This document shows, in pieces, positions 461 through 35,080 of a stretch of DNA of 61,513 bases. The first letter of the stretch is position 1, and every line of letters starts with the position of its first letter. Below the pieces are notes generated by a model. That model ran no database searches, had not been told where the DNA came from, and saw nothing but the letters and a program-made list of their open reading frames with translations. The translations under genes were made by a program, and so were the position numbers. This stretch comes from Acidimicrobiia bacterium (GTDB taxonomy: Bacteria; Actinomycetota; Acidimicrobiia; IMCC26256; JACDBD01): NCBI GenBank assembly GCA_036005605.1, contig DASYQJ010000236.1:1-61513 (forward strand). The letters are read 5' to 3'.

Positions 461-2857
461 CCGGTCGTCGCCTCCGAGCTGCGGACGGCGCGTGATCGTC
501 TCATCGGTGATCGCAGCCGCCGCGGGGCGGAGTTCGGGCGCGCGCTCGCGGAGCTGCTCGACGGCGCACTGACGCGATCGCTCGCCTCCGCTGCCGAAGC
601 CGTCGAAGGACGGCTGTCGCTGGCGGCGGTCGGCTCCTACGGCCGAGCCGAGCTGAGCCCGGGCTCGGATGTCGACGTGGTGTTGCTGCACGACGGCCAC
701 ACGAACGTGGCCGAGGTCGTCGACCGCCTCTGGTACCCGCTCTGGGACGCCGGGTTCGTGGTCGGCCATGCGATCAACACCGTGAAGGAGGAGGTCGCGC
801 TGGCCGAGCGTGACCTGCACGCGCTCACCGCGTGGCTGGACGCCCGCCACGTCGCGGGCGATTCCGAGCTGTTCGCCGACGGCGTCGCGCGCATCCGCCG
901 GCTCGCACAGCGGCGCCGCGCCCGGCTCGTCGACGACCTGCGCTCGGCCGCCGAGGTCCGGCGCGAGAAGTTCGGGCTCGTCGCCGAGATGCTCGAACCC
1001 AACCTCAAGGACGGCAGCGGCGGGTTGCGGGACGCCCAGTCGCTGTCGTGGGCGGGATGGACGCTCGGTGAGCCCGGCGGCTGGCAGGCGCTCGTCGAAC
1101 AGGGCTATCTCCGCGACGGCGATCCCGGCCGCCTGGCCGCGGCGATCGGGCGCCTGCTCGACGTTCGCGTCGCGCTGCACCGGGTCACGGGCAGCCGGTC
1201 CGACGTGCTGACGCTCCAGGAGCAGGATGCGATCGCCGTCGAGACCGGCGCCGCGGACGCCGACGCCCTCGTGCGCGACCTGGCGGGCGCGGCGCGCGCG
1301 ATCGCGTGGCTCGTGGCGGACGTCTTCGCCCGGCTCGAGGCGACCGAGCGCGGGCCGGGTGGGCGCGCCTCGCGGCGCGACCGCGACCTCGGCGGAGGCG
1401 TCGTCGTACGCGACGGGCGCGTCGCGTTCTCCGCCGATGCTCTCGTCGACGCGACACTCGTCCTGCGGGCGGCCGCCGCCGCGGCGGAGCTGGGCGCGTC
1501 GTTCGACCGCGCATCGCTCGAGCGTTCGAAGGAGATCGGCGTCGTCGAGTGGGACGCCGAGGCCCGCGATGCCTTCGTGTCCCTCCTGCGCGCCGGGCGC
1601 GGCGCGGTGCCGGTGTTCGAGGCGCTGGACCAGGCCGGCGCGCTGACGCTCCTGCTGCCCGAGTGGGATCGCATTCGGTCGCTCCCGCAGCGCAACGCGT
1701 ATCACCGCTTCACCGTCGACCGGCACCTGCTCGAAGCGGTCGCGGAGTGCGCGGCGCTGCTCGACGACGATGGGTTCGACGGCGAGGTGGCGCGCCGCGC
1801 CCGCGCTGACCTGCTGCTCCTCGCCGCCCTCCTCCACGATCTCGGGAAGGGGATGGAGGGCGACCACTCGGTGGTCGGCGCCGAGGCCGCCGTGGAGCTC
1901 GCTCGTCGCATCGGCGTCGACGAGCCCGGCGTCGCCACGCTCGACTGGCTCGTGCGCCACCACCTGGTGCTCGCCGAGACCGCCACCCGGCGCGACCTGT
2001 CGGAAGAGGCGACGATCACCCGCTTCGGGCGTCTCGTGGGCACCTCCGAGCGGCTCGACCTGCTCTACGCGCTGACCGTCGGCGACTCGCAGGCCACCGG
2101 TCCCGCCGCCTGGGGGCCGACGAAGGCGGCGCTCATCCGCGAGCTGTTCGCGAAGACCGACAGCCTGTTCGAGCTGGGCGTCGTCGGTCCCGGACTGGAC
2201 GCGCACCGTCGCGACACTCTCGAGCGCCATCGCGCGCTGCTGGCCCGACGGGAGCTGGCGATCGACTGGAGCGACCGCGACGACGGCCTGCTCGAATGCG
2301 CCGTCGCCGCCCCGGACCGCACCGGGCTGCTGGCGCAAGTCGCCGGCGTGCTGGCGCTGTTCGGCTTCGACATCCGTGACGCGGCCGGTTACATCGCCGA
2401 CGGCATGGCGCTCGAGGTGTTCGACGGCGCCGACCACTACGGCCGGCTGGCCGAACAGGCGGGTCGCGACGCGGTCATAAACGTGTTGCGCAGCGTGTTG
2501 ACCGGCGAGCTGCCGCTCGCCGAGCAGCTGCGCGCCCGCATCCGTCGCTACCGGATCCCCGACCCGGGCGACGTGGCTGTGGTCGTCGACCAGGATGCAT
2601 CCCCCACGGCGACCGTCGTCGAGGTCCACGCCCCCGATCACGTCGGCCTGCTCGCGCAGGTGGCGTCGACGTTCGCCGACCTCGACGTCGACGTCCGCAC
2701 CGCGAAGGTCTCGACGTTGGGGGAGCGCGTCGTCGACGTCTTCTACGTGCACGACGCCGCCGGCGACAAGATCCTCAAGAAACTCACGCTCGATCAGCTC
2801 AAGGCGACGCTGATCGCGCGGCTGACGAGCGAGTACTGGCTGCCCGAGCCGACCTGA
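461..2857 (+). CDS. glnD: [protein-PII] uridylyl/adenylyl-transferase GlnD (start codon unresolved)
   Basis: It contains a nucleotidyltransferase motif (GSYGRAELSPGSDVDVVLL), an HD domain (HDLGKG) and two C-terminal ACT-like repeats. The stop is at 2855-2857. No ATG, GTG or TTG exists in frame between the glnK stop and the NTase motif (see finding). Confidence 0.85.
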   Translation, partial: PVVASELRTARDRLIGDRSRRGAEFGRALAELLDGALTRSLASAAEAVEGRLSLAAVGSYGRAELSPGSDVDVVLLHDGHTNVAEVVDRLWYPLWDAGFVVGHAINTVKEEVALAERDLHALTAWLDARHVAGDSELFADGVARIRRLAQRRRARLVDDLRSAAEVRREKFGLVAEMLEPNLKDGSGGLRDAQSLSWAGWTLGEPGGWQALVEQGYLRDGDPGRLAAAIGRLLDVRVALHRVTGSRSDVLTLQEQDAIAVETGAADADALVRDLAGAARAIAWLVADVFARLEATERGPGGRASRRDRDLGGGVVVRDGRVAFSADALVDATLVLRAAAAAAELGASFDRASLERSKEIGVVEWDAEARDAFVSLLRAGRGAVPVFEALDQAGALTLLLPEWDRIRSLPQRNAYHRFTVDRHLLEAVAECAALLDDDGFDGEVARRARADLLLLAALLHDLGKGMEGDHSVVGAEAAVELARRIGVDEPGVATLDWLVRHHLVLAETATRRDLSEEATITRFGRLVGTSERLDLLYALTVGDSQATGPAAWGPTKAALIRELFAKTDSLFELGVVGPGLDAHRRDTLERHRALLARRELAIDWSDRDDGLLECAVAAPDRTGLLAQVAGVLALFGFDIRDAAGYIADGMALEVFDGADHYGRLAEQAGRDAVINVLRSVLTGELPLAEQLRARIRRYRIPDPGDVAVVVDQDASPTATVVEVHAPDHVGLLAQVASTFADLDVDVRTAKVSTLGERVVDVFYVHDAAGDKILKKLTLDQLKATLIARLTSEYWLPEPT

Positions 2858-2874
2858 GGCTCGCCCTAGGCTCC

Positions 2875-2938
2875 GCGGCAACGGCGGCTTTGCCGACCGT
2901 TGCCGCAAAGCTGGAGCTTGCGACGGCGACGAAAGGAG
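2875..2938 (+). promoter_or_regulatory. conserved hairpin+SD leader element, copy A
   Basis: P1 hairpin is GCGGCAACGG-CGGC-TTT-GCCG-A-CCGTTGCCGC (2875-2906). P2 is AAGC-TGGA-GCTT (2908-2919). A GCGACGGCGACG box is followed by the SD AAAGGAG (2932-2938). It aligns base for base with 6433-6495 and 32967-33029. Confidence 0.7.
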
Positions 2939-2943
2939 TGGCC

Positions 2944-3624
2944 GTGGCTGAACCGGACCCGATCTCTGCCGCCGACCTCTTGCGTTGGGCAGAGTCGCTG
3001 AGCGGCATCGCGCGCACTGGCCTCGGGTTCACGCAGAGCCTCTACGAGAAGGAGCGCTTTCAGGAGGTGCTGAAGGTCGCGGCCGATATTCGAGCAGCGG
3101 CGCTCGAAGAGGCCGAGAGCGACGCCCTGTTCGAGGAATGGCTGGCGTCGGTGGGCGACGGGGTCGCCGGTTATGTGACACCGAAGGTGGCGGTTGCCGC
3201 CGTGGTCGGCAACGAGGCCGGTGAGATCCTTCTTACGCAGCGGGCCGACTCCGGAGTGTGGCTGTACCCCGTCGGCTGGGCCGATGTCGGGTATTCGCCG
3301 TCGGAGGTCGCGGTGAAGGAGGTCTACGAGGAGACGGGCATCGAGGTCGAGCCCGTGTCGCTCATCGCCGTGTTCGACGGCTTGCGCCTCGGCTTCGCGC
3401 GCGTTCCGCTCTACTCGCTCGTGTTCCATTGCCGGATGCTCGGTGGCGAGCTGCAGGGCCATCCGCTCGAGACACGGCGAGTCGGCTTCTTCGCCCGGGA
3501 TCAGCTGCCCGAGCCGCTCGCCGGGGGCGCCCGGTGGGTCGACACCGCGTTCGCCGCCATCGAGGGCGAGACTCGTCCCGCCGACTTCGATCAGCCCCGC
3601 ACGCCTCCCTGGCGTGGCACCTGA
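2944..3624 (+). CDS. NUDIX hydrolase with an N-terminal Nudix_N-type domain
   Basis: Nudix box GWADVGYSPSEVAVKEVYEETGIEV. I chose the GTG at 2944, which lies 5 nt after the AAAGGAG SD. An in-frame GTG at 2938 is an alternative start. Confidence 0.85.
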   Translation: MAEPDPISAADLLRWAESLSGIARTGLGFTQSLYEKERFQEVLKVAADIRAAALEEAESDALFEEWLASVGDGVAGYVTPKVAVAAVVGNEAGEILLTQRADSGVWLYPVGWADVGYSPSEVAVKEVYEETGIEVEPVSLIAVFDGLRLGFARVPLYSLVFHCRMLGGELQGHPLETRRVGFFARDQLPEPLAGGARWVDTAFAAIEGETRPADFDQPRTPPWRGT

Positions 3625-6404: not shown

Positions 6405-6422
6405 CTTGACCGGGTGGTCAAG
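6405..6422 (+). terminator. 7-bp hairpin just after the amidase stop
   Basis: CTTGACC-gggt-GGTCAAG is a perfect inverted repeat 23 nt after the TAA. It has no U-tract. It could be a terminator or processing hairpin, or an operator. Confidence 0.3.
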
Positions 6423-6432
6423 TAACATCCAC

Positions 6433-6495
6433 GCGGCGACGACGGCTTTGCCGATCGTCGCCGCAGAGCCGGAGCTTGCGACGGCGCCAAGGAGG
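6433..6495 (+). promoter_or_regulatory. conserved hairpin+SD leader element, copy B
   Basis: P1 is GCGGCGACGA-CGGC-TTT-GCCG-A-TCGTCGCCGC (6433-6464). P2 is GAGC-CGGA-GCTT. The box GCGACGGCGCC precedes the SD AAGGAGG (6489-6495). A TTG start follows at 6500. Confidence 0.7.
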
Positions 6496-6499
6496 CAGA

Positions 6500-7741
6500 T
6501 TGACCGACGTCGCGCGTCGGCCGGGTGACCCCGACGGGGCATCCAGGCCGCCGAAGCCGAAGAAGCAGGAGCAGGAGCCGGCGAGCGAGGAGATCGTCGA
6601 GGTCGCCCCCGGCATCCTGCGCATGCAACTGCCGATCTGGATGCCCGGCCTCGGCCACGTGAACACGTACGGCCTCCTCGACGAGCGCGGCCTCGCCGTC
6701 GTCGACCCTGGGCTCCCCGGTCCGCAGTCGTGGAAGGCGCTCAAGACCCGGCTGAAGGCCGCCGGCTTCAAGCTGCGCGACATCCACACCGTCGTCGTCA
6801 CACACTCGCATCCCGACCACTTCGGCGGCGCCGGCCGCGTCGCTCGCGAAGCGCACGCGGAGCTGATCACGCACCGTGCGTTCACGACGTGGTCGCTCGA
6901 CCGCAAGACCCGCAAGCAGCAGGCACGCCTGTCGCGTCGCGAGGCCGAGCAGCTCGAGCGGGACGCCGCCGCCGTCGCCGAGAGCGTCGACGTGTCTCCC
7001 GACGAGCTCCCGACCGTCGCCGAGGTCGGCGACGACGACCGCGACCGCGAAACGGGCGACCCGCTGCTCGACGACCCGACCGTCGAGCGGCAACGCCAGT
7101 CCGTGCCCTGGGGCGGCGAGACGCCATGGGGCGGAAGCAAGCACCCGATGCCGCCGTTCCGCCGCCGGGTGATGATCCGCGCGTTGGGCATGCTGTTCAC
7201 GCCGCCCGACCCGACACGACGCGTCCGTCACGGCGAGCGCGTGCGACTCGCCGGGCGCGAGTGGATCTCGTTGCACACGCCGGGTCACACCCTCGACCAC
7301 CTGTGCCTCTACGACGAGGAGCACGGGATCCTCCTCGCCGGCGACCACGTGCTCCCGTCGATCACGCCCCACGTCTCGGGTGTGGGCAACGGCGCCGACG
7401 CGCTCCGCAGCTACATCGCCACTCTCGACCTCGTCGCCGACCTCCCGGGCGTACGCCTCGGGTTGCCCGCGCACGGGCATCCGTTCGACGACGTGCCCGG
7501 ACGCGTCGAGGCCATCAAACGCCACCACCAGGAGCGCATGGACCTCCTCGGCGCGGCGTCGGCGGCACTCGGCCCCGCCAGCGTGCAGGAGCTCTCACAC
7601 GAGCTGTTCCCGAAGAAGCACTGGGGCGTCATGGCCGAGAGCGAGACGTTCGCCCACCTCGAGCACCTCGTGCTCGAGGGGCGCGCGGAACGCCACCGCG
7701 AGGACGGCCGTCTCATCTACACGGTCGCTCCCGCTTCCTGA
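6500..7741 (+). CDS. MBL-fold metallo-hydrolase
   Basis: HxHxDH motif VVTHSHPDHFGG and later HTPGHTLDH. A charged insertion lies in the middle. I chose the TTG at 6500, which is 4 nt after AAGGAGG and in frame with track ORF 6476-7741. Confidence 0.85.
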   Translation: MTDVARRPGDPDGASRPPKPKKQEQEPASEEIVEVAPGILRMQLPIWMPGLGHVNTYGLLDERGLAVVDPGLPGPQSWKALKTRLKAAGFKLRDIHTVVVTHSHPDHFGGAGRVAREAHAELITHRAFTTWSLDRKTRKQQARLSRREAEQLERDAAAVAESVDVSPDELPTVAEVGDDDRDRETGDPLLDDPTVERQRQSVPWGGETPWGGSKHPMPPFRRRVMIRALGMLFTPPDPTRRVRHGERVRLAGREWISLHTPGHTLDHLCLYDEEHGILLAGDHVLPSITPHVSGVGNGADALRSYIATLDLVADLPGVRLGLPAHGHPFDDVPGRVEAIKRHHQERMDLLGAASAALGPASVQELSHELFPKKHWGVMAESETFAHLEHLVLEGRAERHREDGRLIYTVAPAS

Positions 7742-32966: not shown

Positions 32967-33029
32967 GCGGCGACGGCGGCTTTGCTGACCGTCGCCGCAG
33001 AGCCGAGCTTGCGAGGGCGACCAAAGGAG
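32967..33029 (+). promoter_or_regulatory. conserved hairpin+SD leader element, copy C
   Basis: P1 is GCGGCGACGG-CGGC-TTT-GCTG-A-CCGTCGCCGC (32967-32998). P2 is GAGC-CGA-GCTT. The box GCGAGGGCGACC precedes the SD AAAGGAG (33023-33029). The moaC TTG is at 33034. Confidence 0.7.
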
Positions 33030-33033
33030 TGCT

Positions 33034-33540
33034 TTGTCGGCGTCCGAGTTCACGCACCTCGACCCGCTCGGGCGGGCGCGCATGGTGGACGTCTCCTCCA
33101 AGGAGGCGACGCACCGCCGGGCCGTCGCCCGCTGTCGGGTGTACATGGAGCCCGAGACGACCTCGAAGATCGCCGCCGGGGCGATCAGCAAGGGCGACGT
33201 GTTCGCCGTCGCCCGCGTCGCCGGCATCCAGGCCGCCAAGCAGACACCGAACCTGTTGCCGTTGTGCCATCCGCTCCTCGTGGGGTCAGTGTTCGTGAAC
33301 TTCCGGATCGAGGACAGCCACGTCGAGGTCGAGGCGCAGGTCGACACCGTCGACCGCACGGGTGTCGAGATGGAAGCCTTGACCGCGTGCGCGATCGCCG
33401 CGCTCACCATCTACGACATGTGCAAATCCATCGACCGCTCGATGACCATCGGCGAGCTCACGCTGTGGGAGAAGACCGGCGGCCGCTCTGGGATGTACCG
33501 CCGCCCGCTGCCCCTCGACGACGACGAATTGGGCATCTGA
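33034..33540 (+). CDS. moaC: cyclic pyranopterin monophosphate synthase MoaC
   Basis: HLDPLGRARMVDVSSK...IQAAKQTPNLLPLCHPL...GVEMEALTA are the MoaC signatures. Confidence 0.95.
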   Translation: MSASEFTHLDPLGRARMVDVSSKEATHRRAVARCRVYMEPETTSKIAAGAISKGDVFAVARVAGIQAAKQTPNLLPLCHPLLVGSVFVNFRIEDSHVEVEAQVDTVDRTGVEMEALTACAIAALTIYDMCKSIDRSMTIGELTLWEKTGGRSGMYRRPLPLDDDELGI

Positions 33541-35006: not shown

Positions 35007-35080
35007 GGGGGTGTAGCTCAGTCCGGTAGAGCGCTACGTTCGCAACGTAGAAGTCGTGGGTTCAAGTCCCATCACCTCCA
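35007..35080 (+). tRNA. tRNA-Ala (anticodon CGC)
   Basis: The cloverleaf folds by hand. The acceptor is GGGGGUG/CACCUCC with the G3:U70 Ala identity pair. The D arm is GCUC/GAGC. The anticodon stem CUACG/CGUAG carries loop UUCGCAA. The T arm is GUGGG-UUCAAGU-CCCAU. The discriminator is A, and CCA is not encoded. Confidence 0.95.

Follow-up and report, generated by a model that had tools for sequence, protein, structure and literature searches.

A two-hairpin dispersed repeat of soil Acidimicrobiia as a likely portable 5' leader

What are three almost identical stretches of about 70 nucleotides (nt), each ending in a Shine-Dalgarno sequence, doing in front of three unrelated genes? The question is raised by contig DASYQJ010000236.1 of an Acidimicrobiia bacterium, of which we analyzed 61.5 kb of high-GC actinobacterial DNA (here, the window). 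An original prediction made from the sequence had taken these stretches, copies A, B and C of what we call the element, for a candidate regulatory RNA family, with a dispersed repeat as the fallback. According to our analysis, they are likely to represent a non-autonomous, evolutionarily mobile dispersed element, ~70 nt long, of a clade of soil Acidimicrobiia, acting as a portable 5' leader. A pathway-specific riboswitch is excluded, since the downstream genes are unrelated, the copies are ~90% identical to each other and fall into subfamilies, and the element is present or absent at the same site between close relatives.

A dispersed family

All three copies of the window are on the + strand, between the gene pairs GlnD>NUDIX (A), amidase>MBL-fold hydrolase (B) and MoaA>MoaC (C); coordinates are collected in Table 1. 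They had been described as three near-identical blocks with unrelated flanks, and this was borne out by their alignment and by a repeat search of the window, which puts them into one family. The 32-nt consensus of the first hairpin, P1, matches exactly these three window sites when up to 3 mismatches are allowed, with 0 expected (100 shuffles), and in a covariance model search with filters off, copies A to C reach 73-86 bits and the next match in the window 24 bits. As had also been stated, each copy ends in a Shine-Dalgarno sequence of the AAGGAG type, 4-5 nt before GTG 2944, TTG 6500 and TTG 33034, respectively.

The blocks had been matched to no known RNA class, and our Rfam check of the window likewise gave no family for the element. 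At the gathering threshold, the window contains only a tRNA gene (35007-35080, + strand, 70.6 bits) and a fluoride riboswitch (crcB motif, RF01734; 14371-14432, - strand, 52.7 bits against a gathering value of 34, full model covered), both outside the three copies; with E-values up to 10, the region 2780-3040 gave sub-threshold matches only, at 13-21 bits against cut-offs of 38-79. In the literature, we found no earlier description of the repeat, either by concept or by literal sequence.

A scan for the pattern CGCANAGCN{1,3}GAGCTTGCGANGGCG, with one genome per species, returned at least 111 matching stretches in ~18 species-level metagenome-assembled genomes (MAGs) of Acidimicrobiia/Actinomycetota, mostly from soil and with many copies per genome. 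The loci were taken with 8-kb flanks, and in the resulting 865 kb of locus DNA, nhmmer found 155 copies and the covariance model 139 copies at 52-91 bits. About one quarter of the copies fail the exact scan pattern. Two subfamilies are defined by the linked variants A...ACA and G...CCA, and a third, CGCAGGAGCCGGAGCCTGCGACGGCGACC, was seen among the copies outside the exact pattern. As a rough extrapolation, three copies per 61.5-kb window would correspond to dozens to perhaps a hundred per genome. The genome record nearest to the window by DNA is MAG MFD02159.bin.2.15 (contig CAVVDV010000002.1), with ~91% nucleotide identity over shared stretches.

The lack of a common pathway among the three downstream genes, already pointed out for the window, holds for the whole family: 100 downstream proteins carry 129 Pfam families, the commonest of which occurs in 4, and 118 downstream proteins form 95 clusters. 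Among the downstream genes are frr, def, metK, groES and nuoA.

Some copies are irregular. Tandem, partly duplicated or permuted copies were seen at L034:3946-4080, L058:6700-6800 (a 1.3-copy arrangement starting with the CTTGCGACGGCG part), L049 (-) 7148-7235 and L087:3211-3300, hinting at slippage or recombination between internal direct repeats. Others consist of the 3' half only, that is, the second hairpin, P2', and the tail (L032:468-495, L035:1088-1122, L046:2161-2190, L052:4352-4385, L106:1346-1385 and L110:2248-2281); in at least L032 and L110, an unrelated hairpin stands where P1 would be, which suggests a modular build of any hairpin, a conserved P2' and a Shine-Dalgarno sequence. 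Phage were considered as a vector and rejected: a 19-mer of P2' gave 8 matches in viral contigs spanning 38-68% GC, of which nhmmer kept 5 that extend barely beyond the box and have no P1 homology, and we judged these to be chance matches. In one low-GC (38%) viral contig (L192:8661-8720, - strand), the exact P2' 19-mer adjoins a T-loop-like GGTTCGATTC, maybe part of a tRNA-like gene; this match is probably a coincidence.

Occupied and empty sites

Orthologous sites with and without the element were compared for copies A and B; for copy C, the comparison DNA contained no moaA/moaC orthologous locus. The comparison set for the NUDIX gene consisted of 80 metagenome loci with orthologues at 80-98% amino acid identity. 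Its closest relatives (94-98%) are element-free and read TGA...cccTAGGCT followed by 7-8 nt and ATG/GTG, where the window reads TAGGCT-cc-[element]-GTG, and the 3' tail of copy A is missing from the empty sites. When the element-free NUDIX orthologues were aligned from residue 1, TANNNT was found 6-9 nt before the start in 42 of 47. TANNNT is the actinobacterial form of the -10 box, and the distance from this box to +1 is usually 6-8 nt; TANNNT at 6-9 nt before ATG/GTG is the layout of a leaderless gene. At the same NUDIX junction, the lineage of L131, L132 and L134 (89% amino acid identity) carries an element with another 5' spacer, P1 sequence and tail, while L119 (94%) has at the NUDIX promoter an internally deleted remnant, TAGGCTccGTGGCGGCGGCGACAGAGGAGGATCG-TTG, in which only the Shine-Dalgarno sequence is kept. 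This remnant (L119:130-166, GTGGCGGCGGCGACAGAGGAGGATCG) amounts to a short leader with a Shine-Dalgarno sequence before a TTG start, and appears to stem from recombination between GCGACGGCG-like direct repeats in the 5' arm of P1 and the 3' strand of P2'.

Three loci (L117, L118 and L131) align with the window on both flanks of copy B, 6433-6499, without the element, and their empty sites read CTTGACCnnnnGGTCAAG-TAACAT/TAGCAT/TAGAGT followed by 6-7 nt and GTG. Five further occupied/empty pairs correspond to a change from a leaderless to a leadered gene (L086/L062, L092/L028, L022/L076, L096/L041 and L085/L022), and five insertions (occupied: L057, L037, L038 and two in L058) adjoin an upstream co-directional gene at its stop codon, within the spacer that leads to the following gene. 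Among the other pairs, one insertion is antisense and two are upstream of an existing Shine-Dalgarno sequence. A single copy (L076:251-320, compared with L022:5199-5260) is in frame within a SOS-response-associated peptidase (SRAP) gene, whose reading frame stays open; it adds ~20 residues and replaces ~9 (...AAWRD|RGEGGFADPRRTAGACDGDNQKRAVPDAE|WLRSC...). The consensus element has stop codons in no sense frame.

The start codon is often not the same in occupied and empty sites. TTG is used at 17 of 113 occupied sites, and at the NUDIX locus, it was found only alongside the element or its remnant. Leaderless initiation requires AUG or GUG, and the TTG starts fit a release from this requirement once a Shine-Dalgarno sequence is present.

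Many copies thus show presence/absence polymorphism at orthologous sites, the mark of a dispersed mobile repeat. No consistent target-site duplication was found across ~15 occupied/empty pairs, with local tandem duplications at a few copies (L034, L058, L077 and L098), and no fixed insertion offset from the -10 box was detected in these comparisons. Terminal inverted repeats are missing as well: the two ends, reading GCGGCG... and ...ACAAGGAG, do not form an inverted pair, and the palindrome of P1 is an internal one at the 5' end. In the upstream flank of the copies, only C(-1) is conserved (73%), and neither a target motif nor a GTAG-like tetranucleotide was seen. The fallback of the original prediction, a repeat resembling repetitive extragenic palindromes (REPs) or miniature inverted-repeat transposable elements (MITEs), therefore stands as far as a dispersed repeat is concerned, but not as a plain one, because ~80% of the copies are in sense orientation at start codons, and terminal inverted repeats and target-site duplications are lacking.

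The positions of the copies are as biased as their orientation. With gene calls passed through a strict filter on GC content at third codon positions (GC3), a co-directional open reading frame starts within 80 nt of 113 of the 147 full copies, and several copies outside this filter also visibly have a Shine-Dalgarno sequence and a start codon. In the sense copies, the start codon lies 12-13 nt past P2'; overall, the start codon follows the end of P2', or of the conserved core, at 11 to 16 nt with a sharp peak at 12-13 nt, and this distance does not change in steps of 3. A Shine-Dalgarno sequence was found in 92 copies, up to ~8 nt before the start outside the window. Where both neighbors run in the same direction, 46 copies are sense and 10 antisense; 8 copies lie between convergent genes.

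The upstream gene is divergent in 63 copies, its start being at a median distance of ~47 nt, which leaves space for little beyond a promoter, and co-directional in 60, mostly with its stop codon within 20 nt. The latter arrangement is what an intrinsic terminator or a 3'-end stabilizer of the upstream gene would show, in the manner of the enterobacterial REPs and bacterial interspersed mosaic elements (BIMEs), and a few copies do have a stop codon on one side and a GC-rich terminator-like hairpin on the other, oriented like the upstream gene and without a start codon after them (L010:4201-4300, L029:4433-4530 and L045 (-) 3130-3232). We give such a function next to no credence, since no transcript to be terminated runs into the 63 copies after a divergent gene, AAAG/AGAG stands after P1 in place of a U tract, and spacing and orientation are locked to the downstream start codon.

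TANNNT occurs 1-10 nt upstream of 62 of 145 copies versus 0.4% of random windows (~100-fold), most commonly at 4-5 nt; G is enriched just 5' of it, and a -35 signal was not seen. That TAGNNT merely reflects upstream stop codons was ruled out, the motif being equally frequent after divergent genes (31/63). As the -10 hexamer mostly ends 3-5 nt before P1, the predicted transcription start is at G1-G3 of P1.

Next to copy B, a perfect 7-bp inverted repeat (6405-6422, + strand; CTTGACC-GGGT-GGTCAAG) abuts the TAACAT hexamer of the MBL-fold hydrolase gene. It is kept in the element-free L117, L118 and L131, in which only the 4-nt spacer differs, and it resembles a transcription factor operator.

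Table 1. Copies of the element in the window, with the adjacent promoter-like hexamers and downstream genes
Feature	Positions	Strand	Basis or remark
Copy A	2875-2943	+	Sequence, covariance model
Copy A P1, 10+4 bp, UUU loop, bulged A; predicted transcript 5' end	2875-2906	+	Fold, covariation
Copy A P2', GCUG-GA-G-CUUG-C-GA-CGGC; one U.G pair, tandem G.A, CUUG tetraloop	2910-2927	+	Alignment, fold
Copy A 3' tail, ACGAAAGGAGTGGCC	2929-2943	+	Contains Shine-Dalgarno AAAGGAG 2932-2938
-10-like hexamer TAGGCT, NUDIX gene promoter, 2 nt 5' of copy A	2867-2872	+	Sequence; same hexamer in element-free orthologues
NUDIX hydrolase gene, GTG start, downstream of copy A	2944-3624	+	Pfam NUDIX and Nudix_N
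Copy B (P1 6433-6464, P2' 6468-6485, tail to 6499)	6433-6499	+	Sequence, fold, covariance model
Copy B Shine-Dalgarno AAGGAGG	6489-6495	+	Sequence
-10-like hexamer TAACAT, 4 nt 5' of copy B	6423-6428	+	Sequence; element-free relatives
MBL-fold hydrolase gene, TTG start, downstream of copy B	6500-7741	+	Family assignment; GTG in element-free relatives
Copy C (P1 32967-32998, P2' 33002-33018)	32967-33033	+	Sequence, fold, covariance model
Copy C Shine-Dalgarno AAAGGAG	33023-33029	+	Sequence
-10-like hexamer TACACT, 7 nt 5' of copy C, 4 nt past the moaA stop codon	32954-32959	+	Motif only
moaC, TTG start, downstream of copy C	33034-33540	+	Pfam MoaC

Two covarying hairpins

The P1 hairpin, for which 10+4 bp, a UUU loop and a bulged A had been proposed, is the minimum-free-energy fold in all three window copies, and the compensatory differences listed between copies A, B and C are correct. 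Across the enlarged alignment, the stems covary: P1 has double changes in 9 of its 14 pairs and beats 500/500 shuffles, none of which reaches the observed values, and pairing falls to 21-56% in slid controls. The double-change cells of P1 number 60 in the first alignment and 79/87 in the larger one, though cell counts of the covariation tables are not independent events. On the gene-sense strand, the noncanonical pairs of P1 comprise 56 G.U/U.G versus 10 A.C/C.A, an excess which indicates that P1 matters on this strand, whether in RNA or in single-stranded DNA of the top strand. Many variants of P1 occur at one locus only and are common to orthologous copies in different species (e.g., L027 and L030), which points to selection at each locus.

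The second hairpin, P2', was picked unprompted by RNAalifold and reads GCCG-GA-G-CUUG-C-GA-CGGC. Its stem consists of four G-C/C-G pairs and, beyond a 2x2 internal loop where tandem sheared G.A pairs may form, a fifth pair, G-C, capped by a CUUG tetraloop. Its cells are paired in 99.7% of cases, with double changes in 3 of 5 pairs (G:C>C:G in 6 copies, C:G>G:C once and G:C>A:U once, plus two U.G variants); as these represent few independent events, the support for P2' is moderate. P2' is the minimum-free-energy fold of the consensus and its variants at ~-6 kcal/mol, with the exception of the A:U variant, which folds without the inner pair (-5.8), and the U.G variant of copy A, which reaches only -4.1. 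Copy C has a GCC...GGGC variant, one nt shorter. A CsrA-type GGA presented in a loop was considered here and dropped, the GGA lying within the P2' stem and the tandem G.A pairs.

P2' changes how the 3' half of the element had been understood. The GCGACGG box and the linker are conserved, as stated, but the box is the 3' strand of the P2' hairpin. The small RAGC/GCUU hairpin proposed in the same region overlaps P2' and is less well supported; it shows one double change at the subfamily level. The proposed switch, in which the 3' arm of P1 would pair with the box instead, could not be upheld: it shows 0 double changes, one of its pairs is broken in 38 of 113 copies, and it cannot outcompete P1 energetically. 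In the ensemble, P1 dominates, with a mean unpaired probability of 0.17 compared with ~0.6 for the Shine-Dalgarno region, and ensemble folding gave neither a consistent structure downstream of P2' nor a consistent sequestration of the Shine-Dalgarno sequence.

These results bear on the proposal of a riboswitch or attenuator that senses a ligand and adopts mutually exclusive folds beside the Shine-Dalgarno sequence. Such a device would show stems that covary, unpaired residues that are conserved and an internal Shine-Dalgarno sequence, as the element does, and novelty is conceivable given that no known class was matched. We nevertheless deem it highly improbable: two simple hairpins without a multi-helix junction make up the element, the alternative helix does not covary and is often broken, sequestration is inconsistent under a dominant P1, and copies ~90% identical sit before unrelated genes as recent, polymorphic insertions.

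At the other extreme, the element might be a purely selfish repeat, derived from REPs or from IS200/IS605, whose hairpins serve as top-strand DNA for single-strand transposition and have no function as RNA, the Shine-Dalgarno sequence only making insertions tolerable. One hairpin near each end on the same strand, strand-specific insertion, the lack of terminal inverted repeats and target-site duplications, and the occurrence of subfamilies and of tandem and partial copies would all suit such a repeat, and hairpins of single-stranded DNA tolerate G.T wobbles, too. We regard this as very unlikely, however, as compensatory changes private to fixed orthologous copies (L027/L030) indicate selection beyond master copies, and the left end shows no conserved target tetranucleotide.

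A portable leader and its relation to known systems

In the reading that we favor, of a mobile portable leader, the element would insert in sense orientation just upstream of start codons, its commonest target being the 6-8 nt that separate the -10 box of a leaderless gene from its ATG/GTG, with short spacers between co-directional genes as further landing sites. After insertion, the resident -10 box would start transcription at, or 1-3 nt from, the foot of P1, so that the mRNA would carry, in this order, a 5'-terminal 14-bp hairpin, the P2' hairpin, an unpaired ACA spacer and the AAGGAG Shine-Dalgarno sequence 4-8 nt before the start. The gene would thereby switch from leaderless to Shine-Dalgarno-led initiation. 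Since the element brings its own strong Shine-Dalgarno sequence, its insertion would be tolerated, and may be advantageous, and it would be kept in the sense orientation. By analogy with known leaders, P1 at the 5' end would most likely guard the transcript against decay that depends on the 5' end, while P2' may bind a partner, be it protein or RNA, or be needed for mobilization.

The bias in sites may come from targeting, for example of the melted promoter region, or from selection after random insertion. We lean to targeting on account of the recurrent insertions in the same 7-nt NUDIX promoter gap (the window, L131/L132/L134 and possibly the L119 remnant).

Several points weigh against this reading. 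The strict TANNNT motif is upstream of only ~43% of the copies, gene calls rest on the GC3-based heuristic and promoter calls are likewise heuristic, and we infer the transcript 5' end at P1 from the spacing of the -10 motif alone. About 10% of the copies are antisense to both neighbors, ~6% are in 3' untranslated region (UTR)-like positions, and one is the in-frame copy of the SRAP gene; given these stray positions, targeting is not absolute, and the bias could be due to selection after random insertion. As part of P2' is fixed by the scan pattern, its apparent invariance is inflated. Mobility rests on presence/absence patterns, no transposase having turned up, although none was sought, and repeated precise loss is an alternative, if a less parsimonious one.

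A more far-reaching version likens the element to a spliced leader, but one of bacteria and encoded in DNA, which would be directed to leaderless promoters at their melted -10/+1 region, e.g., by single-strand-DNA transposition on the non-template strand, and would enrol genes in a post-transcriptional circuit mediated by P2'. We consider this version unlikely as it stands. A regulatory leader in which P2' and/or P1 binds a global RNA-binding protein or a small RNA, with mobility just recruiting genes, is a related idea that we hold to be quite doubtful. It is compatible with all the insertion data, pairing in P1 is kept locus by locus, and the P2' hairpin is near-invariant in sequence even as its stem covaries, which is typical of a recognition element. 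Yet no candidate partner was identified, the downstream genes have no common theme, the search pattern itself accounts for part of the P2' invariance, and a presence that varies at the same gene between very close relatives would be odd for an important regulon.

The ways in which bacterial genes acquire and lose 5' leaders, and the reasons for the abundance of leaderless mRNAs in some lineages, have yet to be explained. The element offers close relatives in which the same gene is either leaderless or leadered, and therefore the effects of the switch on translation, mRNA stability and start-codon choice are directly testable; the TTG codon, confined at the NUDIX locus to sites occupied by the element or its remnant, already hints at relaxed constraint. 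With the covariance model, gene starts and likely 5' ends of transcripts could be annotated in the poorly known soil Acidimicrobiia, and the 70-nt cassette of hairpins and Shine-Dalgarno sequence might be useful as an expression part for high-GC actinobacteria. The case is also a warning that a covarying, Shine-Dalgarno-linked look-alike of a riboswitch can be a mobile repeat.

Among known systems, the closest in concept is the mycobacterial interspersed repetitive unit (MIRU), likened to the element by description and not by sequence. In the part of PMC12548453 drawn on here, MIRUs are presented as apparently mobile short (40-100 bp) mycobacterial repeats, inserted in sense orientation at start codons or in intergenic spacers, which preserve expression through an internal short open reading frame that overlaps the gene (-4) and is translationally coupled to it (PMC12548453, citing Supply et al. 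1997). The element is alike in that it also inserts in sense at start codons or between co-directional genes and would preserve downstream expression. It differs in using a Shine-Dalgarno sequence 4-8 nt before the start, with neither a frame lock nor an overlapping stop codon. MIRUs often form tandem arrays, whereas the element occurs mostly as single copies, has two covarying hairpins and is hosted by the class Acidimicrobiia.

Terminal inverted repeats and target-site duplications, which define MITEs, are absent from the element, which is thus not one. With REPs, BIMEs and the palindromes derived from IS200/IS605, it shares the nature of a small, multicopy, extragenic imperfect hairpin that is strand dependent and has neither of these features, but it lacks a GTAG-type foot, inverted pairs and clusters, is locked to start codons and carries a Shine-Dalgarno sequence. 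The Correia repeats of Neisseria (NEMIS), the enterobacterial repetitive intergenic consensus (ERIC) and the BOX repeats land in 5' UTRs or in two-gene transcripts and alter mRNA processing, stability or expression. The element is likewise a dispersed repeat landing in UTRs; in contrast to it, they have terminal inverted repeats (Correia also a TA duplication), occur in both orientations and supply no ribosome-binding site to leaderless genes. In mechanism, though not in ancestry, the element resembles the 5'-terminal hairpins of the Escherichia coli ompA leader and of the Bacillus subtilis aprE and ermC-type leaders, which protect against 5'-end-dependent attack by RNase E/J: in each case, a hairpin at or near the mRNA 5' end, a position predicted for the element, is followed by a strong Shine-Dalgarno sequence. 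These stabilizers are leaders of single genes, however, and not a mobile family. The in-frame SRAP copy in L076 recalls the Rickettsia palindromic elements (RPEs), from which the element differs in that in-gene insertion is its exception (1 seen). Overall, we rate the element as a previously undescribed family of a known kind, the small repeats dispersed in bacterial genomes with insertion sites at gene starts.

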